This document shows positions 348 through 62,729 of a stretch of DNA of 64,000 nt, one piece after another. Origin of the DNA: Bacteroidia bacterium (GTDB taxonomy: Bacteria; Bacteroidota; Bacteroidia; JAIBAJ01). The notes under the pieces were generated by a model that did not search any database, was not told the origin of the DNA, and worked only from the letters and a program-made list of their open reading frames with translations. The translations under genes were made by a program, and so were the position numbers. The stretch is from contig JAIBAJ010000001.1 in NCBI GenBank assembly GCA_019695265.1, positions 34,347 through 98,346 of the forward strand, written 5' to 3'. The stretch's first letter is position 1. The number at the start of each line of letters is the position of its first letter.

Positions 348-1643
348 TTACCGGGCAGAGGCCATAAAATCTTCAATATGATCGGCTTCAATTGGAATTT
401 GCTCCATTAAATCGACCGGTTTTCCCAGTGTCACCAAAATATTATTTTCTATTCGAATTCCCAGGTTTTCCTCCTTGATATAGATTCCGGGTTCACAGGT
501 AAACACCATACCGGGTTGAATTGGGGCAAAACGATCACCTATATCATGCACATCCAAGCCAAGAAAATGACCGATACCGTGAGGGTAATATTTAAAAAAG
601 GCAGGTCGTTCGGGGCTGGCATTTTTCACATCGTTGGTGGTTATAAGCCCTAACGACAGCAGTTCATCCTGTATCATTAATCCGGCGGCCTTTCTCAAAT
701 CATCCAAGGCTTTACCGGGAACCATCAGATCTTTTATTTGGCGGTGCACTTTTAGCACCGAATTATACACCTCTTTTTGACGTTTTGTAAATTTCCCGTT
801 TACCGGAATACAACGAGTTAAATCGGCGTTGTAATTGGCGTAGTTTGCACCAAAATCCATCAGAATCACATCCCCATCCAGACAAGGCTTATTGTTTTCG
901 ATATAATGTAAAACACAAGCACTACCGCCGGAAGCAATAATTGGTTCATAAGCATGGCCGGTTGCCCGATTGCGGATAAATTCATGGATTATTTCGGCTT
1001 CAACTTCATATTCCATCACGCCAGGTTTCACAAACTTCATAACCCTTTGGAAGGCTTTATCAGTGATATCGATGGCTTTACGCAACAGATCCACTTCAAT
1101 TGAAGATTTGATAGCTCTGAGTTCGGCCATGATAGGGCCAGAGCGATGGTAATTATGTAGAGGAAATTTGGCTTTTAATTCATTGGCGAAACGTAAATCT
1201 TTGTAAGGAACCATCCAGCCGGAGCGATCATTTTCATTGAGATTCAGATACACATTTTCGGCATGATTCAGAACATAACTCAGAATGGATTCAAAACTTT
1301 CTACCCAAACCACTTTTCGGATACCAGAGGCCTGGGTTGCCTCGGCTTTTGAATATTTATGACCTTCCCAGGTTGCCAAATGCTCGTTGGTTTCAACTAC
1401 AAACAATACCTCCCTGTAATCGTGATTAGGGCAATCCGGTGCCAAAATAAGGATGGATTTTTCCTGATCAATTCCTGTTAGATAGAAAAAGTCGGAGTTT
1501 TGTCTAAATGGATAAACTGCATCACCATTCAAGGGCATTTGATCATTGGAATGAAAAATGGCCACCGAATTGGATTTCAATCGGTTTTTGTAGCGTTGAC
1601 GATTTTCAACAAATAAATCCGGAGATATGGAAGTATACTTCAT
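348..1643 (-). CDS. pepP: Xaa-Pro aminopeptidase (M24 family, PepP-like)
   Basis: 431 aa. Carries the M24 metal-binding motifs HGIGHFLGLDVHD and the pita-bread-fold C-terminus. The N-terminal AMP_N-like region matches aminopeptidase P architecture. Confidence 0.8.
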   Translation of the reverse strand: MKYTSISPDLFVENRQRYKNRLKSNSVAIFHSNDQMPLNGDAVYPFRQNSDFFYLTGIDQEKSILILAPDCPNHDYREVLFVVETNEHLATWEGHKYSKAEATQASGIRKVVWVESFESILSYVLNHAENVYLNLNENDRSGWMVPYKDLRFANELKAKFPLHNYHRSGPIMAELRAIKSSIEVDLLRKAIDITDKAFQRVMKFVKPGVMEYEVEAEIIHEFIRNRATGHAYEPIIASGGSACVLHYIENNKPCLDGDVILMDFGANYANYNADLTRCIPVNGKFTKRQKEVYNSVLKVHRQIKDLMVPGKALDDLRKAAGLMIQDELLSLGLITTNDVKNASPERPAFFKYYPHGIGHFLGLDVHDIGDRFAPIQPGMVFTCEPGIYIKEENLGIRIENNILVTLGKPVDLMEQIPIEADHIEDFMASAR

Positions 1644-3392: not shown

Positions 3393-3556
3393 GCCACAGG
3401 AATGGTCAAATATAGAAAATGATCGGCAATTGAGTTAAAGAGAATATAAAGTTTTTGGTATAAATTTCAGTTGACATCCGTATAAAAATGCCGGATGAAG
3501 GGCCACCCGGTTGCGTGGAGACTAAAATATGCCTTACTTTGCACCAATCAGAAAAC

Positions 3557-4333
3557 ATGTCAAAAAGACCAACCATATTAGTTACCAATGATGATGGCAT
3601 AACTGCACCTGGAATTCGAGCTTTGGTTGAAGCCATGAAAGAAATTGGAGAGGTAGTGGTAGTTGCGCCGGATAGTCCACAAAGTGCTATGGGTCACGCC
3701 ATTACTATTAGCAAACCTCTTCGATTGTATAAAACCGAAATCCATGGTGAAGTTTTGGGTTACCAATGCAGCGGCACACCGGTCGACTGTGTTAAACTGG
3801 CTGTTAACCAAATTTTACACAAAGCACCCGATTTGTGCGTAAGCGGAATCAATCACGGAAGCAATTCTTCCATCAATATTATTTATTCCGGAACCATGAG
3901 TGCCGCCATGGAAGGAGGAATTGAAGGAATTCCAAGCATTGGCTTTTCTCTCCTGAATTATGCTCACGATGCCGATTTTTCCGCGTCCAAAGAAGTGGCC
4001 AAACGAGTGGTTCAACAGGTCCTAAAAAACGGTATGCCTAAAGACACCTTGCTCAATGTAAACATCCCAAATCTACCTTGGGAGCAAGTAAAAGGCATGA
4101 AAATTTGCAGACAAGCCCGGGCCAAATGGAAAGAAGAATTTGACGAACGAAAAGATCCCACCGGCCGACCTTATTTCTGGCTTACCGGTAAATTTATCAA
4201 TATGGACAAAGGGGAGGATACCGACGAATGGGCCCTCGAAAATGGCTATGTTTCCATTGTTCCAGTTCAGTTTGACCTGACTGCCCACCATGCAGTTTCA
4301 ACACTCAATCAATGGGATTTTGATGAAAAATAA
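3557..4333 (+). CDS. surE: 5'/3'-nucleotidase SurE
   Basis: N-terminus ILVTNDDGITAPGIRAL is the SurE signature. Start taken at ATG 3557 (MSKRPTIL) rather than the upstream ORF-track start. Confidence 0.85.
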   Translation: MSKRPTILVTNDDGITAPGIRALVEAMKEIGEVVVVAPDSPQSAMGHAITISKPLRLYKTEIHGEVLGYQCSGTPVDCVKLAVNQILHKAPDLCVSGINHGSNSSINIIYSGTMSAAMEGGIEGIPSIGFSLLNYAHDADFSASKEVAKRVVQQVLKNGMPKDTLLNVNIPNLPWEQVKGMKICRQARAKWKEEFDERKDPTGRPYFWLTGKFINMDKGEDTDEWALENGYVSIVPVQFDLTAHHAVSTLNQWDFDEK

Positions 4334-4640: not shown

Positions 4641-4855
4641 GACTTTACACAAGGAAACGGGAATATTTGCAGGCTTCACCCGCCGAGGTTTTCGGCCCGA
4701 AATTGGCAACTGAATTAATTTCACCGAAGACAGGCTGCAAGCTCAATTCTACAAGCCTTTTTCTTGTCAATTCTGAATAATTCTCGACTACTTCCTGACA
4801 AGGAATCCTAGAATTTTGAATTATTATTGAATTCTTGGACGGATAAATAGTTTTT

Positions 4856-5010
4856 GGCGGGCCCCCTTCCGCCCAAAAGTTGGTTTCAAATCCGGGAATT
4901 CTGCAAGGGCGTTCGGGTCACGCTATCGGCTGTAGTCCTCGGCCCACTTGGCTAACGCCGCGTGCGCCTGTGGGCTACTTGCCTCTATCGTTGCCCGAGG
5001 TGCGAGTCCA
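4856..5010 (+). repeat. Family-1a dispersed intergenic structured repeat, copy A
   Basis: Begins with the GC hairpin GGCGGGCCCCCTTCCGCC. Core is GGCGTTCGGGTCACGCTATCGGCTGTAGTCC...CTGTGGGCTACTTGCCTCTATCGTTGCCCG. Near-identical cores at 15670-15827 (reverse complement), 23008-23160 and 49010-49170. Confidence 0.85.
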
Positions 5011-5045
5011 ACTTAAGGCAATTTTGAAAAGCTTTTCCTAGGTTT

Positions 5046-5090
5046 AACCCAAATTCCAAACGAAGTTAAACTTCTTTTGGAATTTGGGTT
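5046..5090. terminator. Near-perfect ~21-bp-stem hairpin downstream of the minus-strand giant gene; possible terminator
   Basis: AACCCAAATTCCAAACGAAGTT / AACTTCTTTTGGAATTTGGGTT pairs with one mismatch and almost no loop. It lies 43-87 bp 3' of the stop at 5133. No clear U-tract, so intrinsic-terminator status is uncertain. Confidence 0.4.
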
Positions 5091-5132
5091 AAAATGATCA
5101 TTGAAAGTTTGATTATGCAACCTTCAGGCAAA

Positions 5133-8100
5133 CTACCATTTTGTTTCGCGGTCAAAAACCTCCTTCGAAGCATTTTCACCATTTTTGAAATAGTAAATTC
5201 CACCCCAATTCCATTTCACCTTTTGGTATTCATTCACGTTGGTAGGACCTCTATTCACAATAACCCTAGTAATGGTTTTATTCGCTTCCTGAATAAGATC
5301 TTCCGAAACACCTTCCGGGTATTTTTTATACAACTCGGCCATATAATCGGCCTTGGTCTTTACTTCAGGCGCCGCCGAAACTTGTCCGTTCTTTGCTGAA
5401 TATTCAGCTTCCAATTTAGCTCTTAATTCCTTTTCGATTTGAGCTTGTTTATCCAAGGCGTCTTGCTTTGCCATTTCCTTGGCTTTTTTCTCAAATTCTT
5501 TCTTTGCCTGAAACTCTGATGCTGCCTGCCATTGTTCCTCATTGCGTTTCAAACGATCCTCGTTGCGTTGAGCCTTTTCTTTGGCATCTATTTCTTTATG
5601 CTCTGCAGCCAATCGTGCTGCTTCTTCTTTTCTCTGACGCTCCAGTTCCATTTGCCTTTCCTTCTCAGCCATTTGGGCATTTTTGGCTGAATCTCGTTTA
5701 CTTGTATCGAATGCTAGCTGATCTGCTCTTCGTTTTTGATTTGCTTCCCGTTCCGCAGTAGATTTTTCAATGAAAGTTTGTTTGGCTGCTGCATTTGCTT
5801 CCACTTGCGCATTTCTTGTCGAATCTTTATTTTCTTTTACTTCCTTCCTGTAATCCTGAGTCTTTTGATCAGCTTGAGCCTTAGCTTCCTGGTACTCTTT
5901 CAATTTCCTTTCCTTTTCGGCAGCATTGGCAGCCCTAACTGAATCTCTTATTCTAGCTTCATTAGCCAGTTGATTTTCCCTTTGTTGCTTTTCCATTGCC
6001 TTTTCAGCTTCTGAAATTTCTTTTGACAGTTGCTTTTGGCTATTAAAGGTTTGCAGGGCCGCATTTCTATTGGAATCCCTTTCTGCTTTTTGCTCCTGGC
6101 GGTATTGGTTGGTATTTTGTTTTAGGCTTTCCAATGCAACTTGGTGTTCTTCCTTCTGTCTGGCCTTTTCATTGGCTTGTGCAGTCCGAACGGAATCCTT
6201 TATTCTGGCTTCCCTTGCCAATTGTTCTTCCCTTTGTTGCTTTTCCAAAGCTTTTTCAGCTTCCGATTTCTCTTTAGATATTTGCTTTTGGTTGTTAAAT
6301 GTTTCTACTTGTGCTGTTCGGGTGGCATCCTTTTCACTTTTCTGTTGTTCCCTGTACTGATTGGTAGTTTGTTTTAGATTTTCAAGGTTTTTTTGATGCT
6401 CTAATTGTTGGCGATTCTTCTCATTTGCTTGTGCCGTACGCACCGAATCTTTAATTCTGGTTTCATTGGCCAATTGGTTTTCGCGTTTCAGTTGAAGCTC
6501 GGTTTTAGTTGCCAATGCCTTTTCTTGCGACAATTGCTTATCTGCCTCAAATTCAGTTTTTTGAGCGGTGCGGATGCTATCTTTTAAACTTCTCTGGGTT
6601 TCTCTGTAATTGGCTGTTGTGGCCAGTAATTCTTCCTTTTTACGCTGATATTCAGCCATTCTTGCATCCTTTTCCGATTGGGATTTTAGTTTAGCATTTT
6701 CCCTTTCTGCCATTTCTTCCTCTTTCAATTTGGCATTCTTCTCCTCCTGCATTTTGGTTTCCAATTCTTTACGAATTTTTCGTTCCAACTCAGCCCTTAA
6801 CGCTTCCTCAGCCTTTCTATTCTCTTCCGCGGTGGTACTTTCTACAAAAACCTCATTTTGCAAAGCCGTTCTTTCTTCGTTCGCCTCATCTGCTTTGGCT
6901 TTTTTTGCTTTCTGTTGTTCAAGGAATTGACGTTCCTTTTCCTGTTCTTCTTTTCTTCTGTTTTCTGCTTCTTCTCTGGCTTTTTGAAGAGCAGCCAATC
7001 TTGCTTCTTCTTCTTGTTTTCTTTTTTCTTCAGCTTTAATTTTCCTTGCCTGAGCCTCATCCCAAGCTTGCTGTTGGCGAATCTTCATTTCTTCAGCCGG
7101 GGTAAGTCCGGGGGATGGTTTAGAAATAACCGTTGGACTTGCTAACCTTGTATCACCTTCCTGACTTGCCTTTTGAGCAGCGGCTTCCTTGGCTTGTTGT
7201 TGAGCTTTTAATCTTTTTTCGGCTTCCAAAGCTTTTCGATCAGCTTCTTCCTGAGCAATTTGCCAAGCTTTATCGGCTTGTTCCTTTTCCAACCTTGCTT
7301 TATTCTCTGCGGCTAGTCTTTTATCCTCTTCTTCCTTGGCCTGTGCAGCAGCAATTGCTTTTTTCCGGGCTTCTTCCTGTCTTTTACTTTCCTCTGCTTG
7401 GGCTTGAGCGGCTATCAAAGCTTGTTTTTGGGCTTCTTCCTTAGCCAATTGCTCTGATTTAGCCTTTTCTTGCAACAAAAGTTCAGCTTTTTGAGCATTC
7501 TCTGCTGCCAGGCGCTTATCTTCTTCCTCTTTAGCTTTGGCAGCTTCTATTGCCCGCTTTTTGGCCTCTTCTTTCGCCTTTTGTTCAGCTTCTTTTTGAT
7601 TTTTTGCATCTGCTTCTTCTTTGGCTTTAGCTAGTTGAGCATTTTTTTTCTCCTGTTTAGCCTTTTGCAATGCCTCTTCTTTGGCAGCAGCCTCAAGTTC
7701 AGCTTTGGCTTTTGCCTCAGCAGCCAGTCGCTTTTCCTCTTCGGCTTTAGCTTTAGCAATTGCTTCTGATTTGGCCTTTTCTTCTGAGGCTTTTAAGGCT
7801 GCTTCTGCTTCAGCCTTAGCTTTGGCTTCGGCCGCTAGTCTTTTTACTTCTTCTGCTTGGGCTTTGGCGGCGGCTTCTGCCTTGGCCTTTTCCTCAGCAG
7901 CTTTTTTTGCAGCTTCTGCTTTTGCGGCAGCTTCTGCTTCCGCTTTGGCTTTGGCCTCAGCTTCGGTTTTTGCTTTGGCTTCGGCTGCTAGTCTTTTTTC
8001 TTCCTCTGCTTTGGCTTTGGCAGCGGCTTCTGCCTTGGCCTTTTCTTCCGCGGCTTTTTTTGCAGCTTCTGCTTTGGCAGCTGCTTCTGCATCCGCTTTG

Positions 8101-8906
8101 GCTTTGGCCTCTGCTTCGGCTTTTGCTTTGGCTTCGGCAACTAGTCTTTTTTCTTCATCTGCTTGGGCTTTGGCGGCGGCTTCTGCCTTGGCCTTTTCCT
8201 CAGCAGCTTTTTTTGCAGCTTCTGCTTTGGCAGCTGCTTCTGCCTCCGCTTTAGCTTTAGCCTCTGCATCGGCTTTGGCTTTGGCTTCTGCTGCTAGTCT
8301 TTTTTCTTCCTCTGCTTTTGCCTTTGCAGCTGCTGCTTCTTTTTTCTTTGCCTCTTCCAAAGCCTTTTTTTCGGCTTGAGCCTTGGCTGCAGCTTCGGCT
8401 TCCTTCTTATCTACCTCACTTTCAGCAGCTTTCTCTAGCTCTTCCTGCTTCTTTTGAAATTGCATGCTATAATCCAAGTCGTAGTTAAAATCCTGGGTTT
8501 TATTATCCCAACTAATTTTAGCAACAGGGTTGTTATAAATGGCTACACTTGTATTATCCTGTGGCTTAAACAATTCCACCACAAAAGAAAAGTCTGAAGT
8601 TCGAGCGGTACTATCATCGGGAATATTGGTTATGAATTGCAACTTTTTGGTTACATAACCCTCTTTGGAGAACTCAACAATATATTCAGTATTCAGAGCC
8701 AGCTTGTACAACAACTTCCCTGTTTCGGTGGTGGTAAATTCGTCTTCTACCTTGCCTTTTTCAATGTATTTAACTGTAACACCGGCAAGATTCTTTTTGC
8801 CATCCTTTACAACTCCCTTTATATCCAAACCTTGACCCCATGTTTGTAAGTAAAAGAACAAAAGGAACAAGGATGTTAAGAATTTCAGCCTACGTTTGTG
8901 CTGCAT
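5133..8906 (-). CDS. Giant secreted protein: signal peptide, carboxypeptidase-regulatory-like N-domain, TolA-like Ala/Glu/Lys-rich coiled-coil repeats, globular C-terminal domain
   Basis: 1257 aa. N-terminus MQHKRRLKFLTSLFLLFFYLQTWGQG then DIKGVVKDGKKNLAGVTVKY. About 260 aa of AEAKAKAEAEA..EEKRLAAEAKAK repeats with a 51-aa period, and three ~80-aa repeats (SKEISEAEKAMEKQQRENQLANEARIRDSVR). The C-terminal ~100 aa are non-repetitive. Confidence 0.7.
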   Translation of the reverse strand: MQHKRRLKFLTSLFLLFFYLQTWGQGLDIKGVVKDGKKNLAGVTVKYIEKGKVEDEFTTTETGKLLYKLALNTEYIVEFSKEGYVTKKLQFITNIPDDSTARTSDFSFVVELFKPQDNTSVAIYNNPVAKISWDNKTQDFNYDLDYSMQFQKKQEELEKAAESEVDKKEAEAAAKAQAEKKALEEAKKKEAAAAKAKAEEEKRLAAEAKAKADAEAKAKAEAEAAAKAEAAKKAAEEKAKAEAAAKAQADEEKRLVAEAKAKAEAEAKAKADAEAAAKAEAAKKAAEEKAKAEAAAKAKAEEEKRLAAEAKAKTEAEAKAKAEAEAAAKAEAAKKAAEEKAKAEAAAKAQAEEVKRLAAEAKAKAEAEAALKASEEKAKSEAIAKAKAEEEKRLAAEAKAKAELEAAAKEEALQKAKQEKKNAQLAKAKEEADAKNQKEAEQKAKEEAKKRAIEAAKAKEEEDKRLAAENAQKAELLLQEKAKSEQLAKEEAQKQALIAAQAQAEESKRQEEARKKAIAAAQAKEEEDKRLAAENKARLEKEQADKAWQIAQEEADRKALEAEKRLKAQQQAKEAAAQKASQEGDTRLASPTVISKPSPGLTPAEEMKIRQQQAWDEAQARKIKAEEKRKQEEEARLAALQKAREEAENRRKEEQEKERQFLEQQKAKKAKADEANEERTALQNEVFVESTTAEENRKAEEALRAELERKIRKELETKMQEEKNAKLKEEEMAERENAKLKSQSEKDARMAEYQRKKEELLATTANYRETQRSLKDSIRTAQKTEFEADKQLSQEKALATKTELQLKRENQLANETRIKDSVRTAQANEKNRQQLEHQKNLENLKQTTNQYREQQKSEKDATRTAQVETFNNQKQISKEKSEAEKALEKQQREEQLAREARIKDSVRTAQANEKARQKEEHQVALESLKQNTNQYRQEQKAERDSNRNAALQTFNSQKQLSKEISEAEKAMEKQQRENQLANEARIRDSVRAANAAEKERKLKEYQEAKAQADQKTQDYRKEVKENKDSTRNAQVEANAAAKQTFIEKSTAEREANQKRRADQLAFDTSKRDSAKNAQMAEKERQMELERQRKEEAARLAAEHKEIDAKEKAQRNEDRLKRNEEQWQAASEFQAKKEFEKKAKEMAKQDALDKQAQIEKELRAKLEAEYSAKNGQVSAAPEVKTKADYMAELYKKYPEGVSEDLIQEANKTITRVIVNRGPTNVNEYQKVKWNWGGIYYFKNGENASKEVFDRETKW
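5930..6650. repeat. Three tandem copies of a ~240-bp repeat inside the giant CDS (encode ~80-aa repeats)
   Basis: Nucleotide segments starting near 5941, 6181 and 6421 are highly similar, e.g. ...ttctggcttcccttgccaattgttcttccctttgttgcttttcca... recurs. Confidence 0.7.
7690..8340. repeat. About four near-identical tandem copies of a 153-bp repeat inside the giant CDS (encode 51-aa AEK repeats)
   Basis: gctttggcRgcggcttctgccttggccttttcYtcMgc... recurs at about 7861, 8011, 8161 and 8311 with very few substitutions. Confidence 0.8.
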
Positions 8907-13487: not shown

Positions 13488-15017
13488 ATGTCTACCCTCA
13501 AAAAACTATTTTCCGATACAGCTATTTATGGTGTTAGCAGCATTGTAGGGCGGATGTTGAGTTACCTGCTTACCCCGCTTTACACCTACAACCTGATACC
13601 TAAGGAATATGGGGTAGTAACCGAAATGTATGCCTACTCTTCATTTCTGAGCATTTTATTAACCTATGGCATGGAAACGGCCTTTTTCCGGTTTTACGCA
13701 GGTGAAGACAATAAGAAATCTGTTTTTGCTACGGCCATGTTTAGCTTGCTTTCCAGTTCCCTGGTTTTTCTGGTTCTGGCTTGGTTGTTCCGATGGCCAT
13801 TGGCTCATTTTCTGAATGGTTCCGGAGGAAGTGAAATGGCCGAAAACTATGCCGTTTACCTGGTTTGGTTTGCCTTGATTGTGGTAATCGACGCCATTAC
13901 CTCCATTCCGTTTGCCCGCCTCCGTGCAACCAACCGTCCGGTACGATTTGCATTAATTAAGTCCCTCAACATTCTCAGCTATGTATTCTTTAACCTCTTT
14001 TTCATCTTAGGTATTCCTTACCTGAAACAACAAGGCAGTCTTCCCTGGCTTACCTCCAACCTAGGTCAATATAAGCTGGTTAATTATATCTTCATATCCA
14101 ACTTGATTTCCAGTGGATTAACCCTTCTTTTACTCCTTCCAGAGCTTGGATTTTCCATTCGTGACATCGAAAAAAAAATGTGGAATCGGATGATACGCTA
14201 CGCACTTCCCATTCTCATAATGGGTTTGGCAGGAATGGTCAATGAAACCTTTGATCGAGTGCTACTCAAATACCTGCTACCCTTGCCCTACGATGAAAAA
14301 ATGCACCAAGTGGGTGTTTACGGCGCTTGTTACAAACTCTCCATTATCATGAGTATTTGCGTTCAAGCCTTCCGGTATGCAGCCGAGCCTTTCTTTTTTA
14401 ACCGACACAAAGAAGGAGGAGGACGAAAAATTTACGCCCAGGTAATGACCTATTTTGTATTTGGCTGTAGCCTGGTTTTCCTGGGAACCATGTTGTATAT
14501 GGATGCTATTCAATATTTTATTGGTCGAAATGGAAGTCAGTTTCTCGAAGGACTTCCCATTGTGCCCTACCTCCTCCTAGCCAACCTCTGTTTAGGTATT
14601 TATTACAATTTAGGTATTTGGTTTAAACTCACCGATAAAACCTTGTTTGGTTCCTATATTTCCATTTTTGGAGCCATCCTTACCTTGGTTCTAAACTTTA
14701 TCCTCATTCCTTGGCTGGGTTACATGGGCGCGGCATACACCACTTTAATCTGCTATTTCAGCATGATGGTTGTTTCCTATTTTTGGGGACAGAAGTACTT
14801 TCCAATCGAATACGATTTGGGCAAATTCTTAATCATTCCAGGTTTTGCACTTGGTCTATACGCCCTAAGCATTAGTTTGCAGCCGGTTTCCATGGTATTG
14901 CAAATGTCACTCAACACCGCTTACCTACTACTTTTCCTTGGGGTTTCTTACCTAATAATTTCTAAGGATTGGTTTAAATTTGTACCCAACTTCACTTCCA
15001 ACACTACCATTTCATGA
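13488..15017 (+). CDS. Polysaccharide biosynthesis protein / oligosaccharide flippase (MOP/Wzx-like)
   Basis: 509 aa with about 12-14 TM helices and a Wzx-like topology. The 3' end overlaps the dut start. Confidence 0.65.
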
Positions 15018-15445
15018 AAGTTCGCATCCTAAACCGCTCTCATCATCCATTGCCTTCGTATGAAACTGCTGCTGCAGCAGGCATGGATTTACGAGCCAAT
15101 TTAGATGAACCTATCGTACTTAAACCCTTAGAACGAGCCTTGGTGCCAACCGGTTTATATATGGAAATTCCGGTGGGATTTGAAGCTCAGGTGAGGCCCC
15201 GAAGCGGTTTAGCGGCCAAAAAAGGAATTACCGTTTTGAATTCTCCCGGTACCGTTGACGCCGATTACCGTGGCGAGGTGAAGGTGATTTTAGTGAATCT
15301 TTCGAACGAAAATTTCATCGTGAACGATGGGGAACGAATTGCGCAGTTGGTAATTGCGGCCCATGCTCAGGCCGAATGGGTTGAAGTAAATGAATTAAGC
15401 GAAACCGATCGGGGAGCAGGAGGATTTGGCAGTACAGGAAAATAA
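15014..15445 (+). CDS. dut: dUTP diphosphatase
   Basis: [21 protein letters not shown] and the [11 protein letters not shown] motifs are diagnostic of Dut. 143 aa. Confidence 0.92.
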
Positions 15446-15460
15446 TTTTTTGTTTCCTTT

Positions 15461-15610
15461 GGCGGGTCCCATTCGCAGAAATTTTGTGCCTTTTTCGAAG
15501 TATTTCCGGGCTCATGGTCGGGCTTTCGGCGTTACTCCTCGGCCCACTTGCTAGCGCCGCGTGGTCCTGTGGGGTAACTGCCTCTATCCCTACCCGACGG
15601 TACCCCTGAG
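15461..15610 (+). repeat. Family-1 (1b-like) intergenic structured repeat, copy B1
   Basis: GGCGGGTCCCATTCGC...ATGGTCGGGCTTTCGGCGTTACTCCTCGGCCCAC...CTGTGGGGTAACTGCCTCTATCCCTACCCG. It shares its 5' and 3' modules with the interrupted copy at 31530-31771. Confidence 0.8.
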
Positions 15611-15669
15611 CTTGGTAAACTTTAACCCACTTCAGGAACTTGAAATGTTCTATCCAAAATAGTCCTATT

Positions 15670-15827
15670 GGGGCTTGCACCCTCGGGCAACGATAGAGGC
15701 AAGTAGCCCACAGGACACCTACGGCTTTAGCCTAGGTGGACGAGGACTACAGCCGAAAGCGTGACCCGAACGCCAATGCATTTATGATGGGGATTTGCAA
15801 AAAGCCAGGATGGCGGAGGGGGCCCGC
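15670..15827 (-). repeat. Family-1a repeat, copy B2, in inverted orientation to B1
   Basis: Its reverse complement matches copies A, C and F almost base for base (GGCGTTCGGGTCACGCTTTCGGCTGTAGTCCTCGTCCACCTAGGCTAAAGCCGTAGG...CTACTTGCCTCTATCGTTGCCC). It ends with GGCGGAGGGGGCCCGC. Confidence 0.85.
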
Positions 15828-15863
15828 ATAAAAACCAACTTAATCTTCAAAAAACCAACCGAA

Positions 15864-17249
15864 TTAGTAGCCCAAATCGCCTCGTACATAAATAAGTTCC
15901 ATCACCCCTTTGATGAACTTGGCCCGGTACTCGGCCAGCTTTAATTCCGCATCCATCCAGCGGGTTTCGCGGGTGTTGAGCAAAAACAGACTGCTTTCGC
16001 CGGAGTCAAACTTCATTTTCTCGGCCGACAAAAGTTGCTTACTGAGGCGGGCATTTTGCTCTGCATTGGACAATTGCTGACTAAGGATGTTCAGGTTTTT
16101 TTGAATTACCTCCAACTTCAGGTCCAATTCATTCCGTTTGGTGGTTAAATCGAGGGCATTGTTTTGGAGATTCAACTTCGCAATTTTATAATCGTTTCGG
16201 GCCGAACGAAGCAGCAAAGGCATAGCAAACTGCACCCCCCACTTGTAATTGGAGGTATTAAAGAGGGCGTTGGAAGAAGGCGAATTACCAAGAAAATTGT
16301 ACTTCACGTCCAACTTGGGTTTAATCATTTCGGCTCTAAACTTTTTTTCCACCTCCAGAACTTGTTGATAGGCCTGGTACTTAGAAATTTCGGGATTCAC
16401 TTGAGGTCCGGCGGCCAACAATTGCAAATATTTGGTTTTCATCCAATTATAAGTTTGTTCCAAACTATCTTCCACGGCCAAAGTGCCACGCATGGAGAAT
16501 TCCTGATTGGGGGCCAACCAATTTTGAGCAAGCAGAAAATTCTCCACTTTATTCAAATCCATTTTTACGCTTTGCACTTGCAGGAGGCGGCTTTGCAGGA
16601 GAATAAAGGCTTCGACCGAATCGATTGCGGCATTTTCGCCAATTTCGGCCAAGGATTTTATGCCTTGAAAGCGTTTATCGGCCAGGTCGAGAAAGTAAGT
16701 AGAAAGACTAAGTTCCTTAAGAGTAAAAATCCAATCGAAATATGCTACAGAAGCCTGGTAGAGAAGTTCGTTCTGCAAACGGTTTTTCTCGGCATCGTAG
16801 TACTTTTCATAGCCTTTAGCTTTCAGCAATTCGGCTCGGCGCTTGTCAATGAACATTCCTTGTCCGAGGGCGGTTTCCACTCCAATAAATGGCAATCCGG
16901 CAGCGGGAGTTTTCTCTTCAGGATTGAGGTAAACCCCTTGTGAAAAGCCATAACCTGCTGAAAGGTATTGAGAAGCGAACAAAGGTTGTTTAACCTGGAG
17001 ATTAAGGACTGAATAGTAGTTTTTACCATCGAAGGTTTTGTTATCGAAATCGCCCGACAAGAATGGATCGAACCCGCCTTGGGCTGAGCGTTTAGCCAAA
17101 CGGCCCATTTCTCCAACATTATTGGCTTTTTGAAACAAAGGGTGATTGGACTTAACCCTTTCCAGGAATGCTTGAAAGCCGAGGTTTTCCTGAGCTTTTG
17201 TTTGAAGTGCCAGGAAGGAAAGCAGGAACAGAAGGAGTTTATTTTTCAT
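15864..17249 (-). CDS. TolC-family outer membrane efflux protein
   Basis: Signal peptide MKNKLLLFLLSFLALQTKAQE, about 460 aa of helical/barrel repeats typical of OEP/TolC. The start overlaps the upstream HlyD gene stop by 11 bp, which indicates an operon. Confidence 0.75.
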   Translation of the reverse strand: MKNKLLLFLLSFLALQTKAQENLGFQAFLERVKSNHPLFQKANNVGEMGRLAKRSAQGGFDPFLSGDFDNKTFDGKNYYSVLNLQVKQPLFASQYLSAGYGFSQGVYLNPEEKTPAAGLPFIGVETALGQGMFIDKRRAELLKAKGYEKYYDAEKNRLQNELLYQASVAYFDWIFTLKELSLSTYFLDLADKRFQGIKSLAEIGENAAIDSVEAFILLQSRLLQVQSVKMDLNKVENFLLAQNWLAPNQEFSMRGTLAVEDSLEQTYNWMKTKYLQLLAAGPQVNPEISKYQAYQQVLEVEKKFRAEMIKPKLDVKYNFLGNSPSSNALFNTSNYKWGVQFAMPLLLRSARNDYKIAKLNLQNNALDLTTKRNELDLKLEVIQKNLNILSQQLSNAEQNARLSKQLLSAEKMKFDSGESSLFLLNTRETRWMDAELKLAEYRAKFIKGVMELIYVRGDLGY

Positions 17250-19584
17250 TTTTACCCTCCTTCGAATCCAGGCTTTTGGTTTGTGGTTTATAGAATTCGG
17301 GCGGGAAACCATTGATTTTTCGCCAAATTTCGTACACTACCGGAACTTCTTTCAGTATTAATATTCCTTTTACCCCACTACCAACCTGAATAGAAACCGG
17401 CCAAGATTCACTATCCTTTTTAGCCAGCACTCGAAACTTACCATTGGGAGAAATTACCTTATCTACCGACACCACGGTAGCCTGGTAGGTACCAAAACTG
17501 ATACCGGGCCAACCGCTAAACACAAAGGCCGGCCAGCCATCGAACGTAAGCTGCATGGATTGTCCTTTTTCCACTAATGGAAGATCCATGGGTTCAATAT
17601 AAACCTCTACGGAATAATTACCCAGGTTAGGAACAAAGCTTACCAAGGCTTCACCTTCTTTGGTTAAATCACCAACACCTTGTTTAAAGGTACGGGTAAT
17701 AAATCCATCCTGGGGGCAAAGCACATAGTAATAAGAATTTCGAATGCTATAGTTTGACAATTGGTTTTGCATTTTTGTTAATCCCGCTTCGGCATCATAG
17801 AGCGTTGATAAAGTGGAGAACTTTTCAGATTCGGCCTTCATCAGCTTTTCGTTGTATTCCTGTTTAATGGCATTCAGTTCAATGTAAGCATTGGTAAGGT
17901 CATTTTTAGAAATCATAAATTTGTTTTCAGCCTCAATTACTTTGGCATGGCTATCTTGCAATTTAGCTTTACGGTTTTCAAAATCAGTTTTTGAAATTAC
18001 CCCTTTGCTCAGGAGGGATTCAAAACGTTGAAATTGTTCCGAAGTAATGGTGTAATTATTGGCGATGGAAGCATAGTTTGCACTATCGGATTTTACTTTA
18101 CCCTGCATTTGGGTTACTTTGTTTTTAACCTGCTGCATTTTAAGCGGATAAGCCTTGTTGATGGCATCTATTTGCGCATCGATGGAATTAATTTTACTTT
18201 CATAGGAATGGATGGAAGATTCTTTTGAATTGACCTGAGCCTGGGTTCTTTCCACCAATTTAGGATCCATATAATCCTCTTTAATTTCTGAAATCAAGGC
18301 AATGGTATCTCCTTTTTTAAGGAAATCACCTTCCTTAATAAACCAACGTTCGATACGACCCGAAATACGGGAGGTAATGTTTTGGGGGCGATCGGTAGGA
18401 TTCAAGGTGGTAACTGCACCTTCCGACTGAATGGTTTGGTTCCAAGGCAGAAAGAGGGTTATGATGGAAATTCCACCGATTGTATAAAGTATGGTTTTAA
18501 TTTTCTTTGAATAGGTGTGGTTATAAATTCTATCGAGAAAACGTTTGTAAAGTCCATCGTACTTCAGGTGGGTTTGATAATCTTCCTGTTGATCTAATTC
18601 CAGCACTTGGTATAGCTTTTCCGTAGCGGTTAGAACATCATAAATGGTACGAAGCTCCACAACAATTTTCTCGACACCATTAATAATGAGAACCACCAAA
18701 ATTTCAGAAGCCACAAATTGGCCGATATTAAGCAAACCCCATTGAACGAAAAGCACACCAACCAGAAGAATGAGTGAAGTAAACAATACCTTAAATAGGA
18801 GAATGCTTTTGAACTGCAATTCCAGAATTTGAAAATTTTTGGTTTTGGTTTCCAGGTAATGGCTCAATTTTTCTTCGGTTTCATGAAAAATAAAGGGAGC
18901 ATCCATGGTTTTATCCTGGTTCTTTAAACCAATAAAAACATTTTGCAACCAATCAACAAACTGGTATTTTCGTTTTGATTCATTCAAGCTAGCCTCCATA
19001 GAACGTTGTCCATAGTATCGAAGCAAAAAATAATACAACACCGAAACTACAAGGGTAAAAGACAAAAAAAGAGGGCTGTATGCCGATAGAATCAGTAAAC
19101 AAAAGGCGATACTTATAGCGGCAAATGAAATATCAATGAGAATTTTAGTAAGTCCTTTTTGAAGGGTTAATACATCGAAAAACTGGTTTATTTTACTTGG
19201 GATGTATTCATTGAGGTAAAGATCCGATTTAAGGTGGGCTACTTTTTCGGCAAATTTTACTCCAAAAAACACCAAAATACTTTGCTGAATGGTCTCATTT
19301 ATTCTCATTTGCCAAAGCTGGAATGCAGAAACAAAAACCAGACAAAGAATAGTGAGTGTGCAGAGTAAGAACAAGGACGACGATAACTTACCGGTCATGG
19401 TATAGGTTACAACGGCTTGAATTCCGAGAGGAACCGCTACATAAAAAAGGCTTTGCAGGGCCGAAAGGAGATAAATTCGACGAATATTTGCCCGAAGGGG
19501 TTGGAGCAATTGCAGGAGTCTGTTTAATTCAATCATGGTTTGCAAAAGTACACACGGATTTGAAAATGATAGTATTGCTATCAT
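17239..19584 (-). CDS. Fusion protein: N-terminal ABC-exporter transmembrane domain (no ATPase domain) + C-terminal HlyD-family membrane fusion protein
   Basis: The first ~330 aa are a 6-TM ABC_membrane-like domain ending in the canonical TMD-NBD linker ATEKLYQVLELDQQED. It runs directly into an HlyD N-terminal TM helix (ILYTIGGISIITLFL), the biotinyl/lipoyl-like hairpin motif (IKEGDFLKKGDTIALISE) and a long coiled coil. No Walker A/B or ABC signature motif is present. Confidence 0.6.
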   Translation of the reverse strand: MIAILSFSNPCVLLQTMIELNRLLQLLQPLRANIRRIYLLSALQSLFYVAVPLGIQAVVTYTMTGKLSSSLFLLCTLTILCLVFVSAFQLWQMRINETIQQSILVFFGVKFAEKVAHLKSDLYLNEYIPSKINQFFDVLTLQKGLTKILIDISFAAISIAFCLLILSAYSPLFLSFTLVVSVLYYFLLRYYGQRSMEASLNESKRKYQFVDWLQNVFIGLKNQDKTMDAPFIFHETEEKLSHYLETKTKNFQILELQFKSILLFKVLFTSLILLVGVLFVQWGLLNIGQFVASEILVVLIINGVEKIVVELRTIYDVLTATEKLYQVLELDQQEDYQTHLKYDGLYKRFLDRIYNHTYSKKIKTILYTIGGISIITLFLPWNQTIQSEGAVTTLNPTDRPQNITSRISGRIERWFIKEGDFLKKGDTIALISEIKEDYMDPKLVERTQAQVNSKESSIHSYESKINSIDAQIDAINKAYPLKMQQVKNKVTQMQGKVKSDSANYASIANNYTITSEQFQRFESLLSKGVISKTDFENRKAKLQDSHAKVIEAENKFMISKNDLTNAYIELNAIKQEYNEKLMKAESEKFSTLSTLYDAEAGLTKMQNQLSNYSIRNSYYYVLCPQDGFITRTFKQGVGDLTKEGEALVSFVPNLGNYSVEVYIEPMDLPLVEKGQSMQLTFDGWPAFVFSGWPGISFGTYQATVVSVDKVISPNGKFRVLAKKDSESWPVSIQVGSGVKGILILKEVPVVYEIWRKINGFPPEFYKPQTKSLDSKEGKNEK

Positions 19585-22944: not shown

Positions 22945-23007
22945 TTCTACCTAAAGATTGCCAAAAAGTCAAATGACGAATCGGCTAGATTTTAAAATAC
23001 GTTTTAT

Positions 23008-23160
23008 GCGGGCCCCCTCCGCCTTACCCTAACTTTGCTAAACCCCAAAATGCTTGCATGGGCGTTCGGGTCACGCTTTCGGCTGTAGTCCAAGCCCACT
23101 CCGCTAAACGCTGCGTTGGCTTGGAGCTACTTGCCTCTATCGTTGCCCGATGCGAAACCT
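23008..23160 (+). repeat. Family-1a repeat, copy C
   Basis: GCGGGCCCCCTCCGCC...GGCGTTCGGGTCACGCTTTCGGCTGTAGTCCAAGCCCACTCCGCTAAACGCTGCGTTGGCTTGGAGCTACTTGCCTCTATCGTTGCCCG. The central stem shows compensatory substitutions relative to the other copies. Confidence 0.85.
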
Positions 23161-23460: not shown

Positions 23461-23492
23461 AAAAAAGCCCCGGATTATCCGAGGCTTTTTTG
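23461..23492 (-). terminator. Rho-independent terminator downstream of the TonB-dependent receptor gene
   Basis: AAAAAAAGCCCCGGATTATCCGAGGCTTTTTTGG is a GC stem flanked by A-run and T-run, 62-93 bp 3' of the receptor stop at 23554. It could act bidirectionally. Confidence 0.65.
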
Positions 23493-23553
23493 GAGTACTT
23501 TCTTTCTAAAATCAATCCATTCATTTTTGGAATTCGATTGATGGAACAATCGG

Positions 23554-31529: not shown

Positions 31530-31771
31530 GGGTTTAGCCGGGTAGGGATAGTGGCAGTTATACCGAATGGACATTATGTTTAGTCCAATTTTAGGTATTA
31601 ATTCCTATTGAAAAATAGGCCTAACATACTGTATACTCGGCATTTACCAATTTTAATTTATAAAAGCCTTCGGACTATTTATAAATTAAAATTGGTATAA
31701 CGCCGAAAGCCCGACCATTCGCCTTCCTTGGTTTGGATTAGGCACTGCTTTTGGTGCGAATGGGACCCGCC
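31530..31771 (-). repeat. Family-1b repeat, copy E, interrupted by a family-2 element
   Basis: The reverse complement reads GGCGGGTCCCATTCGC...ATGGTCGGGCTTTCGGCGTTA, then the family-2 insert, then TAACTGCCACTATCCCTACCCGG. The flanks align with copy B1 (15461-15610). Confidence 0.8.
31561..31697 (-). repeat. Family-2 repeat (about 137 bp), nested inside family-1 copy E
   Basis: Near-identical to 39965-40102. It carries a perfect 20-bp inverted repeat TACCAATTTTAATTTATAAA / TTTATAAATTAAAATTGGTA with a 13-nt loop. Confidence 0.85.
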
Positions 31772-31788
31772 AAATAAAAAACAAAAAA

Positions 31789-35567: not shown

Positions 35568-35603
35568 AAAAGCCGATTCCTTGCCGAATCGGCTTTTTTT
35601 TTA
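35568..35603 (+). terminator. Rho-independent terminator after the DUF3127 gene
   Basis: AGCCGATTC-CTTGCC-GAATCGGCT followed by a T-run of nine. It lies 19 bp after the stop. Confidence 0.8.
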
Positions 35604-37106: not shown

Positions 37107-37148
37107 TTAAACATTTATTTTTAGAAGAATTTTTTATTTTTTTTGGAT

Positions 37149-37295
37149 GCGGGTACCTTCGCATGGGCTTTGCACAGTGAACAAAGTTGAGTAAGGCTCA
37201 GGTCCGGGCTATTCGTTCCAAGTCCTCGCTGCCTAGGCTATCGCCGTAGGCAGCTGTGGGCTTTCCACTGCTATCCCTACCCGGGGTGCAAAGCC
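37149..37295 (+). repeat. Family-1b repeat, copy D
   Basis: GCGGGTACCTTCGCAT...GGCTCAGGTCCGGGCTATTCGTTCCAAGTCCTCGC...CTGTGGGCTTTCCACTGCTATCCCTACCCGG. The reverse complement of 58944-59084 aligns along its whole length. Confidence 0.8.
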
Positions 37296-37683
37296 TAAAT
37301 GTAGTGCTTTGAATCGAGGTATAAGGGTTGCCGAACCAAACTTATACCTTGCAAACAACCAAACCCCAGATGGCTTGGAAGCCTACAGCCCCTAAGCTAA
37401 ACCCGGTAGAGCCAAATAGCTTTGCCACCCCGAAAAGCCCGTGAAAAGGCATGAACTTGGATGGCAAACTATGGGCGATAACGGGGATGAAGATTTTTCG
37501 GGCAGCTAACCCTCGTTTTCAAAAAAAACAAACAACTTCTTATTATTCTAAGCCTTATGTAACTTTTGTAGCTAAGCAACGGGGACCAAGCAACTACATT
37601 TGCCGATATTAATCAATTTAGGTTTTACCTTTACTTGGCTTCCGGAATGAAAAATCCAAGTACATTGGCGGCCTGAGTTAAAG

Positions 37684-39914: not shown

Positions 39915-39964
39915 AATAGCATCGAAAATAAAAACTACAGGCACGCTGAAAAACACGGCAAGTA

Positions 39965-40102
39965 ATACCAATTTTAATTTATAAATAGTCCGAAGGCTTT
40001 TATAAATTTAGATTGGTAAATGCCGAGTATACAGTATGTTAGGCCTATTTTTCAATAGGAATTAATACCTAAAATTGGACTAAACATAATGTACATTCGG
40101 TG
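39965..40102 (+). repeat. Family-2 repeat, copy 2
   Basis: Near-identical to the reverse complement of 31561-31697. It ends 3 bp before the stop codon (40106-40108) of the convergent gene. Confidence 0.85.
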
Positions 40103-40105
40103 TAA

Positions 40106-40675
40106 CTACTCAGACTCCAGACATAAAAAAGGAAAACGACTTTTCAAACGAGGCAAATCTCGCTCTTCAACCGGTAAAAACTTCCAACTTTCGCCGTTGC
40201 CCGAAATTGCAATTAAAAAACGATCGGTAAGAACCTCTTCCCCTCCGGGAGATTTTATAAAAGAAGTTCTTTGTTTGAGTAAACATTGATATTCCTTATT
40301 GCAAAAGAAAATTTTACCTTTTCCTAACACTTCAAAACCACGCAATTGAAGATGAAGCGAATCCAAGTCTTGCTTATAGTTTTTGTGTTCCGATTCAAAC
40401 TCTTCAAAAACCTGAGTACCCAAGGCAAAAGGATGGAAATAAAAATAAACCGTTTTTAAATCATTCTCTTGAATGGCCTTGTTTCGCAGGTTTAACTCCC
40501 TTTCAATCCTATTTCGCAACCACTCATTGTGCTGAATCAGTGCATTGGCATTGGTAACCGAATCTGTTTGAGCATGTGCAACCGACCACCCTATAAAAAA
40601 CAACACCATTGACGGAAAAAATCGACGCAACAAAAGCAAGTAACTCATACTTTTTTTATTCAACTTAGATAACAA
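40106..40675 (-). CDS. Hypothetical secreted protein
   Basis: 189 aa with a signal peptide (MSYLLLLRRFFPSMVLFFIGWSVAHAQ). No recognisable family. Confidence 0.5.
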   Translation of the reverse strand: MLSKLNKKSMSYLLLLRRFFPSMVLFFIGWSVAHAQTDSVTNANALIQHNEWLRNRIERELNLRNKAIQENDLKTVYFYFHPFALGTQVFEEFESEHKNYKQDLDSLHLQLRGFEVLGKGKIFFCNKEYQCLLKQRTSFIKSPGGEEVLTDRFLIAISGNGESWKFLPVEERDLPRLKSRFPFLCLESE

Positions 40676-48876: not shown

Positions 48877-49009
48877 ATTTCACAAAAGTAGCTAGAACTA
48901 ACTTTGAAACACTAATTCATCGCAATTCTTTTGGTTTTTTAAGGTTTCCTCCCCACCATTTCCGCACTTGCTGTCTTATTTTGTCAAAATTTTTTAGGTT
49001 TTTTATTTA

Positions 49010-49170
49010 GGCGGGCCCCCTTCCGCCAACCACCCTTCTTGCCAAATTTTCAAGGCTAAGCACATGGCGTTCGGGTCACGCTATCGGCTGTAGTCCTCGT
49101 CCCCCTAGGCTAAAGCCGTAGTGGGCCTGTGGGCTACTTGCCTCTATCGTTGCCCGGGCACTCCGAACCT
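49010..49170 (+). repeat. Family-1a repeat, copy F
   Basis: GGCGGGCCCCCTTCCGCC...GGCGTTCGGGTCACGCTATCGGCTGTAGTCCTCGTCCCCCTAGGCTAAAGCCGTAGTGGGCCTGTGGGCTACTTGCCTCTATCGTTGCCCG. Confidence 0.85.
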
Positions 49171-58943: not shown

Positions 58944-59084
58944 GGGGCTTGTCCGGGTAGGGATAGGAGTGGATAGCCCACAGCCCCAAACACTTTTGGG
59001 GCGAGGACTAGGAACGGATAGCCCGGGCCTGAGCCAATAAAAACTAGTAACCATCTGTTAACCCTATGCGAAGGCACCCGCATA
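58944..59084 (-). repeat. Family-1b repeat, copy G
   Basis: The reverse complement (TATGCGGGTGCCTTCGCAT...GGCTCAGGCCCGGGCTATCCGTTCCTAGTCCTCGCCCC...CTGTGGGCTATCCACTCCTATCCCTACCCGG) aligns with copy D. Confidence 0.8.
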
Positions 59085-59186
59085 AAAACTTGAACTGAAA
59101 TTTTACTCCTGCTTTGTACAAATCCTTTCACGAAAGCGAAACCAAACTATTCCCTGTTTCCTTCATTATTTCTATCTTTGCCCCTA

Positions 59187-62528: not shown

Positions 62529-62729
62529 TTTTAAAGTTGAAGGATATTTTTAGGAAACAAACGTATGCTGCCCGAACTATCACCTGCCCCGCTATTCACT
62601 GCAATGCCAGCCTGCCCTTTAAGCCATGGCTTTGGCATTTCCGTTGCTATCGGGTTTAGTTTAGCAGGTTCATCTTTTAATCAATCTTGGGTTGGCGGGG
62701 TATCCATCTAACGCTCAAAAACATCTTCC

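Follow-up and report, generated by a model that had tools for sequence, protein, structure and literature searches.

Structured repeats of bacterial intergenic regions have been described in several forms. The ERIC/IRU, Correia/NEMIS and RUP/BOX repeats measure 100-200 bp and resemble MITEs (miniature inverted-repeat transposable elements). They form long, imperfect palindromes bounded by clear terminal inverted repeats; Correia and RUP also generate target duplications. The small dispersed repeats of cyanobacteria, which Elhai et al. reportedly treated in Genome Research in 2008, are said to be nested in mini-transposons and to show hairpin-keeping exchange and compensatory changes. The REPs, or repetitive extragenic palindromic sequences, are simple palindromes of 20-40 nucleotides (nt) with a GTAG or CGTC tag, and in REPINs the doublet is the replicative unit, over-represented and conserved better than the singlets (Bertels & Rainey 2011, PMC3116915; Nunvar 2010, PMC2817692). 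Y1 HUH transposases move the palindrome-associated transposable elements (PATEs), which derive from IS200/IS605, in single-stranded form (He/Chandler work; Kamoun 2018, PMC6006769). A review covers repeats of the ERIC, Correia and RUP type (Delihas 2011, PMC3184786). Here, we describe a repeat family, family 1, in a stretch of 64,000 nt from a Bacteroidia bacterium (contig JAIBAJ010000001.1, hereafter the window), and in particular two of its copies, B1 and B2, which fill the 418-nt spacer between the convergent genes dut (+) and a TolC/OEP-family gene (-).

A preliminary description of this DNA had recognized an inverted, tail-to-tail pair of one repeat family between the two genes, and its coordinates and gene ends proved correct. 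We consider it probable, at roughly 60 %, that the region goes back to two insertion events, independent of each other, of a repeat that is non-autonomous and depends on its structure and that has multiplied within a single lineage of uncultured Bacteroidia, the pair itself being a by-product. B1 and B2 differ in scaffold, 5' module and tip and belong to the two most different subfamilies, with an identity of 74 % over 88 nt by blastn; therefore, they go back to two separate insertions and not to an inverted duplication. Six of the eight copies in the window are single, and the probability that two of eight copies share a region is 0.64-0.98 for 10-30 usable intergenic regions.

Family 1 was defined by a covariance model (R1) built from 14 copies, with which the window was scanned with and without filters. 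Exactly eight full copies were found (E of 1e-19 or better; Table 1), the unit comprising 128-146 nt, to which a T-rich leader and a short tail are added. Simple end motifs likewise located the 5' module eight times and the 3' module eight times, in every case as a pair, and a degenerate 22-base pattern of the family had five matches in the window vs none expected. Outside the window, exact 23-mer scans gave a single match among the GTDB representative genomes, in the uncultured Bacteroidia OZ260106.1, and no match in metagenomes, and the degenerate pattern led to nine loci, two of which (L004 and L006) are chance matches in GC-rich coding DNA. Members of the family are carried by the chromosome of an uncultured Bacteroidia (L001, one copy), by metagenome contigs (L002, L003, L005/L010, L007 with two copies, L008 and L009) and by relatives of the window organism (L012, L017, L018, L020, L026 and L019, the last from a near-identical strain with three copies in 15 kb).

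Rfam 15 gave no matches in the window at the gathering threshold and none on the copies in eight other loci, and with E values of up to 10 allowed, the region 15400-15900 returned chance-level matches only (E 1.7-9.8). There was no blastn match to plasmid and phage records and none to viral contigs, and a search of paper text by sequence retrieved nothing but an unrelated beetle satellite. A cyanobacterial origin or a relation to HIP1-associated repeats was ruled out, the HIP1 motif GCGATCGC occurring 0 times in the window and the proteins matching a Bacteroidia metagenome-assembled genome (nine of ten tested were identical to MBX71804xx/5xx entries). On sequence grounds, family 1 appears to be previously undescribed, its kind being that of the REP/ERIC/MITE-like structured repeats.

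The fold obtained with RNAalifold from the 14 copies is a three-way junction with 29 pairs, 16 of which show changes on both sides. Paired cells amount to 91.8 %, compared with 35-49 % when the partners are slid by 1-3 columns, and none of 500 shuffles reached the observed covariation. Helix P1 joins the 5'-terminal CGGG[C/U] to the 3'-terminal [G/A]CCCG over 5 bp (C-G in nine and U-A in five copies, without exception). P2 pairs CCC..CG with CG..GGG around a variable loop of ~40 nt, and is extended and fully compensated in L001, L008 and L017. These are followed by P3 (NNG with CNN, found as ACG/CGT, GGG/CCC, AGG/CCT and GCG/CGC), a conserved, unpaired 5x5 internal loop (CU[A/U]UC / UCUAU), P4 (GGC/GCC) and P5 (GUAGUCC/GGGCUAC and variants), with a variable apical hairpin forming the tip of the long hairpin. 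The unpaired nucleotides of the internal loop are invariant across organisms.

G·U cells outnumber A·C cells (30 vs 7), with two positions near-fixed as G·U; therefore, it is the strand with the T-rich leader at its start that folds. Reading this leader oppositely, as the poly(A)-like tail of a retroposon, was ruled out as the principal interpretation because the G·U excess puts the fold on the other strand. GTAG was also considered as a REP signature tag and rejected: it occurs only in 1a copies, within P5, where it covaries as part of the stem, and elsewhere its place is taken by CTAG, TTAC, CAAG or GTAC with compensating partners. That each copy is strongly structured by itself, as had been claimed, holds by covariation, with only weak backing from the folding energies, which are -44.4 kcal/mol for B1 alone (z = +0.6) and -53.5 kcal/mol for B2 alone (z = -2.5).

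The proposed modular exchange between subfamilies is borne out by B1, which combines a D-like scaffold with an A/L002-like apical hairpin. Its scaffold is 90/88 % identical to that of copy D vs 48/73 % for copy E, and its apical hairpin is 88 % identical to that of L002 and 82 % to that of copy A, both 1a copies, vs 48 % for E and 38 % for G. The motif quoted for this central hairpin, GGCCCACTTGCTAGCGCCGCGTGG, was located at 15541-15564. The 5' module had been assigned to copy E; it is in fact nearer to D (56 %) and G (55 %), slightly above E (50 %), with the 1a copies at 30-37 %. Overall, two types of apical hairpin exist, each of them on both scaffold subfamilies. The first is carried by the 1a copies A and L002 and by B1, with the tip of copy D in L020 related by eye, and the second by the 1a copies B2 and F, with the tip of E (1b) similar but diverged.

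Copy D also differs between near-identical strains. In L020 it has a normal, B1-like tip, and in the window a 146-nt AT-rich element of a second family (31556-31701) stands in place of its tip and upper stem. The other family-2 copy of the window (39962-40107) is 97 % identical and lies in a convergent intergenic region; the element has terminal inverted repeats GT[T/A]ATACC...GGT[A/G]TAAC and a 20-bp internal hairpin. These comparisons support modular exchange and suggest that it works on a short time scale. Another organism (L007) harbours a second tail-to-tail pair, at 947-1099 (+) and 1317-1403 (-) with the cores ~225 nt apart, in which two different scaffolds carry one tip type.

For the placement of the repeats, the larger non-overlapping open reading frames (ORFs) were taken as genes, and intergenic regions of at least 30 nt were classified. 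A repeat is present in all five convergent regions (four with family 1, one with family 2), in one of nine divergent and in two of 17 tandem regions. Convergent gene pairs with no repeat between them number three, with junctions of -4, 1 and 3 nt. Repeat, leader and tail together take up nearly the whole spacer in three of the five occupied regions of the convergent class. Since the 5' end of any copy in a convergent region faces a co-oriented gene, an orientation in sense to the upstream gene is automatic there; in the tandem regions, E is in sense and G in antisense. The strands are occupied 5 (+) to 3 (-), with the GC skew of the window uniformly negative, eight copies being a small sample. 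Copy C sits between the stop codon of its gene and an A-tract-hairpin-T-tract terminator at ~23463-23493, and therefore inside a 3' untranslated region (UTR). A second canonical bidirectional terminator (A-tract, GC hairpin, T-tract) is found at 35568-35597. Terminator-like sites as such are not enriched over shuffles (22, 16 and 18 found vs 23, 24 and 22 expected).

With exact ends inferred for 17 copies, the longest words common to the 5' and 3' flanks measured 4-9 nt (mean ~5.9), i.e. the null level (mean 5.6, maximum 10), so that no target duplication stands out. T-rich TTTAT, TTTAG or TTTGG precedes every copy and may be part of the element, B1 and D sharing 19 nt of leader (TAATTTTTTGTTT..TTTGG). 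The element contains a 5' hairpin (GCGG...CCGC), with no matching hairpin at the 3' side.

The relatives of the window organism show different degrees of occupation. The ERZ27275342 strain (L012, L019 and L020) is nearly identical in its DNA (column identity of 96 % at the A locus) and shares copy A and the B2-spacer-B1 layout with the window, beyond which it has two more copies. SRR11524805 (L018 and L026; TolC 88 %, VWA 93 %) carries copies at the C and F sites and one after tolC, ERR9903362 (L017; TolC 78 %) has one copy past its TetR gene, and L013, L021, L023 and L025 (TolC 71 %; VWA 78-88 %) have no copy in ~67 kb. At the C and F sites, the cores of the window and of L018/L026 are 100 % identical, with the flanking intergenic DNA at ~65 %. 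The tolC copy of SRR11524805 differs in its spacing to the stop codon, and its 5' hairpin and tip are unrelated. In more distant relatives, the dut-tolC synteny is lost.

Several short-read contigs (L011, L012, L018 at both ends, L026 and L009) start or end inside family-1 copies because a high-copy repeat breaks the assembly. The suggestion of a recombination hotspot finds no backing in L012, the sole related strain with data, which keeps the B2-spacer-B1 layout with a few single-nucleotide polymorphisms (SNPs); the comparison is weak because its contig ends inside B1. Of note, C-rich, G-poor tracts of the CTCA[C/T] type lie downstream of genes in L017 (4790-4860) and L007 (1225-1310), and could be regions of Rho loading.

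The thermodynamics of the composite palindrome were considered for the whole 418-nt spacer and for its two halves. As RNA, the spacer folds at -168.9 kcal/mol on the + strand (z -6.5) and at -176.3 kcal/mol on the - strand (z -7.7), compared with -126.7 and -132.2 kcal/mol for the summed halves, and as DNA at about -78 vs -56 kcal/mol. One long B1:B2 hairpin hence beats the separate halves by ~42-44 kcal/mol as RNA and ~22 kcal/mol as DNA, and folding places the takeover by inter-copy pairs at a growing transcript of more than ~250 nt. The very stable composite palindrome that had been proposed is thus upheld as thermodynamics only, the long hairpin being, by calculation, a real possibility for read-through RNA or exposed single-stranded DNA. 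The role of bidirectional terminator assigned to it did not hold up: no stem followed by a T-run was found in 15446-15863 on either strand, two listed sites falling in coding DNA, and the B1/B2 region therefore does not appear to be a canonical intrinsic terminator. Cruciform extrusion needs near-perfect arms and short spacers. The inverted arms of B1 and B2, as found by repeat search, measure 38 nt (complementarity 82 %) and 29 nt (79 %), and would make poor material for a cruciform in duplex DNA.

Taken as independent insertions, the copies would persist mainly where they are least harmful, i.e. 3' of stop codons within convergent intergenic regions. Because the leader of each copy adjoins the gene that it follows in convergent regions, two copies in one such region come to lie tail to tail, with a palindrome of ~370 bp as the by-product. 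B1 would then be transcribed in sense as 3' UTR of dut and B2 as that of the tolC-like gene. By analogy with REP and ERIC sequences, the local folds could act as a barrier to 3' exonucleases or as a weak factor-dependent block to read-through, and formation of the long B1:B2 hairpin would be confined to read-through RNA or single-stranded DNA. For mobilization, a single-strand (HUH/Y1-type) or other structure-reading enzyme seems preferable to a DDE transposase because of the folding of one strand, the lack of an evident target duplication and a terminal complementarity of only 5 bp. It is a considerably more doubtful extension of this reading that family 1 represents a mobile element of Bacteroidia which an enzyme reads by its structure and transfers in single-stranded form, with the tip as a separately exchangeable cassette in a nested, modular mini-mobile system; tips would be shuffled between the scaffold subfamilies of one genome, and between near-identical strains a tip could be replaced entirely while the stem is kept.

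Several points weigh against selfish insertion. The enrichment in convergent regions is equally predicted by a role as terminator or insulator. The conserved cores at the orthologous C and F sites could mean function in place and not selfish persistence, and conserved cores with diverged flanks would likewise result from gene conversion among copies. The low-copy members in distant Bacteroidia (L001 and L010) could represent genes of functional RNAs. Among the ~45 ORFs of the window, the Pfam scan found no transposase, reverse transcriptase or TnpB. Finally, a search for empty sites with TolC and VWA homologues (12 contigs) recovered no filled/empty pair, close relatives having either the same copies or contigs that end inside copies; therefore, the insertion, its exact ends and its target are deduced and not seen.

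The most probable alternative, although we regard it as unlikely, is a co-option of the B1/B2 pair, or of family-1 copies generally, as signals that stop or insulate transcription between convergent genes and block read-through from both sides through their very stable RNA structures, with Rho perhaps acting on C-rich, G-poor motifs of loop and tail (AAACCCCAA). Rho is encoded in the window at 54902-56719, a repeat is found in every convergent region with any space, the dut-tolC spacer has no other terminator-like site, and a read-through transcript would form the hairpin of -169/-176 kcal/mol; moreover, the orthologous cores are more conserved than their flanks. A preprint also provides precedents, reporting Escherichia coli REP325 as a partly Rho-dependent terminator and mRNA stabilizer and a correlation of REPs between convergent genes with higher expression of both genes (bioRxiv 10.64898/2026.03.23.713779). 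However, no helix of the element is followed by a U-tract, while canonical hairpin-plus-U terminators do exist in the same genome. One of them lies downstream of copy C, which is therefore not the terminator there. The three abutting convergent pairs (-4 to 3 nt) lack an element altogether, more diverged relatives manage without family 1, and the positions of F in a divergent region and of G in antisense between tandem genes do not fit.

A somewhat less probable alternative is that family 1 consists of functional structured RNAs, i.e. 3'-UTR cis elements or processed small RNAs that a specific protein binds and that have been duplicated and retained by selection, with B1 and B2 serving dut and tolC, and that it is not mobile DNA at all. 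The strong covariation, the invariance of the unpaired 5x5 loop nucleotides across organisms and the G·U excess on the strand in sense to the upstream gene all speak for such RNAs, as do the conservation of cores at orthologous sites and the low-copy members of L001 and L010. On the other hand, the neighbouring genes are functionally unrelated (dut, TolC, a reductase, a helicase, a hydrolase and a VWA protein), and about one copy per 8 kb in one lineage faces none in ~67 kb of relatives. Copies are found in all orientation classes, antisense included (G), D contains a second repeat nested within it, and no Rfam family matches.

That the pair acts on the DNA level, as a cruciform or a fragile long palindrome promoting inversion, deletion or recombination, is very improbable: the energy of the single-stranded DNA spacer (-78 vs -56 kcal/mol for the halves) and the turnover of repeat tips between strains at copy D speak for it, but the arms are only 74-82 % complementary and 77-87 nt apart, which also tells against the recombination hotspot first proposed, L012 keeps order and orientation with a few SNPs, and the mixing of subfamilies in both known pairs (B1/B2 and L007a/b) is the remainder expected if near-identical inverted neighbours were lost.

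Within the spacer, B1 begins at GGCGGG (15461/15462) and its core ends with CCCG at 15596. The gap between the copies, put at ~60 bp in the preliminary description, is in fact 87 nt between the conserved cores and is mostly filled by the tails, that of B1 running rightwards from 15597 and that of B2 leftwards from 15683, each of them 15-35 nt long and loosely conserved. In the leader area of B2, beside the tolC stop codon, there is a 20-nt tandem duplication ATT(C/A)(G/A)GTTGGTTTTT (15830-15844 and 15850-15864), which is absent in the relative L018, whose copy starts ~12 nt past the stop. An ORF overlapping B1 (15315-15680, -) was rejected as spurious and has no Pfam match. The ORF of the TolC-family protein comprises 482 aa from its first ATG, the form that is also called on an ENA contig, compared with 461 aa in the NCBI annotation.

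Table 1. Coordinates of the dut-tolC region and of the family-1 copies in the window
Feature	Position	Strand	Evidence or remark
dut (dUTP diphosphatase), upstream gene of B1	15014..15445	+	Pfam dUTPase, 6.2e-32; exact match to MBX7180505.1
B1 T-rich leader (TTTTTTGTTTCCTTTG), directly 3' of dut stop codon	15446..15461	+	T-run precedes GCGGG in every copy
B1 core, 135 nt	15462..15596	+	R1, 126.6 bits, E 2e-29
B1 P1, 5' strand	15463-15467		
B1 5' module with P2	to ~15515		
B1 long hairpin	15516-15591		
B1 apical hairpin	15537..15573	+	A/L002-like type; exchangeable module
B1 P1, 3' strand	15592-15596		
Spacer between cores, two loosely conserved 3' tails	15597..15683	.	Tail alignment, consensus AGGTGCAAGCCCCAA
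B2 core, 144 nt, subfamily 1a	15684..15827	-	R1, 136.9 bits, E 5.5e-32; 95 % identical to copy F over 92 nt
B2 P1, 5' strand	15826-15822	-	
B2 P1, 3' strand	15688-15684	-	
B2 T-rich leader	15828..15863	-	Read from sequence
TolC-family outer membrane efflux gene, upstream gene of B2	15864..17312	-	Pfam OEP, 3.3e-21; MBX7180506.1
Copy A (1a)	4851..5002	+	R1, 142.4 bits
Copy B1, R1 extent	15456-15601	+	R1
Copy B2, R1 extent	15679-15833	-	R1
Copy C (1a), upstream of canonical terminator	23002..23154	+	R1, 111.8 bits
Copy D (B1-like scaffold), tip replaced by family-2 element	31534..31776	-	R1, 93.4 bits
Copy E (1b)	37143..37288	+	R1, 85.7 bits
Copy F (1a), divergent intergenic region	49005..49161	+	R1, 130 bits
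Copy G (1b), antisense to both neighbouring genes	58949..59087	-	R1, 87.5 bits

Some further repeats were observed. Two regions, 62529-62729 (+) and 37340-37560 (-), may represent a third family or distant relatives of family 1, with a T-run leader, GCTGCCCGAA and then CCCCG[C/T]TAT...CTA[T/C]CGGGTTTAG; they match the long-hairpin part of R1 weakly (E 0.11 and 0.26). L010 carries a short family-1 variant (3419-3535, -) with a 106-nt core lacking the long P2 loop, which is divergent from a tmRNA gene (3589-3987, +; Rfam RF00023, 144 bits) and lies 54 nt upstream of it. Near copy A, a near-perfect palindrome of 51 nt (94 %; 5043-5093) with no T-run after it lies between the tail of the copy and the stop codon of a 1257-aa ORF (5133-8906, -), which has no Pfam match and contains 153-nt tandem repeats at 7648-8354 as well as 81-nt and 242-nt repeats.

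If independent insertion is the true reading, the dut-tolC locus would be no special device but an example of a selfish structured repeat that fills the convergent junctions of a compact genome. With its unusually clear covariation, branched fold, invariant loop nucleotides and exchangeable tip, family 1 provides a usable handle for finding the enzyme that mobilizes such elements in Bacteroidota, in which REP-like systems are little studied. Its practical cost is the breaking of short-read assemblies of this lineage. In addition, dut and the efflux gene would carry structured 3' UTRs complementary to each other, which could couple the fates of their RNAs.

Among the known systems, REP/BIME/REPIN sequences with their RAYT (TnpA-REP) proteins resemble family 1 in being high-copy, extragenic and folded on one strand, in lying at gene 3' ends or between convergent genes, in the ability of inverted pairs to form long hairpins in single-stranded DNA or mRNA, and in that no target duplication stands out; roles in mRNA stabilization and partial termination have also been proposed for REPs, as in the preprint cited above. 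In contrast to REPs, family 1 is a three-way junction of 128-146 nt with three helices, and GTAG is found only in 1a, inside a covarying helix. REPINs differ in that family-1 singlets dominate (six singlets and one pair in the window, a small sample) and in that the two known family-1 pairs are spaced by 87 and ~225 nt, each mixing two subfamilies. No RAYT gene was found by the Pfam scan among the ~45 window ORFs.

ERIC, Correia, RUP and BOX share with family 1 a similar size, the intergenic position, a co-transcription with neighbours that is probable for family 1, an RNA fold that could alter mRNA stability, and lineage-specific expansion with subfamilies. However, there is no sequence similarity, and family 1 has just five bases that are complementary at its ends, together with two local hairpins, and shows no detectable duplication. 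For a MITE derived from a DDE element, terminal inverted repeats of ~10 bp or more would be expected, whereas family 1 has only CGGG[C/T] and [G/A]CCCG (5 bp). Intrinsic bidirectional terminators are likewise GC-rich stable hairpins between convergent genes, yet family 1 is far larger, branched and without a U-tract after its stems on either strand, and the true examples in the window (35568-35597 and ~23463-23493) look unlike it.

PATEs come close in their conserved one-strand structure, the lack of terminal inverted repeats of normal length and of any evident target duplication, and a conserved short T-rich sequence 5' of the left end. The ends of IS200/IS605 elements, however, carry similar subterminal hairpins on both sides, which are not seen in family 1, no tnpA or tnpB was found among the ~45 window ORFs, and the strand bias of family 1 is only 5:3. 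The small dispersed repeats of cyanobacteria reportedly also place small structured modules inside larger repeats and keep the hairpin on exchange, but they belong to another phylum with other sequences, and the unit exchanged in family 1 is either a tip of 30-40 nt, within an element of 140 nt, or the AT-rich element of 146 nt. A modular system of this kind would be comparable to, yet distinct from, both REPIN-RAYT and these cyanobacterial repeats. What sets family 1 apart is its branched fold, the invariant nucleotides of its internal loop and its exchangeable tip.

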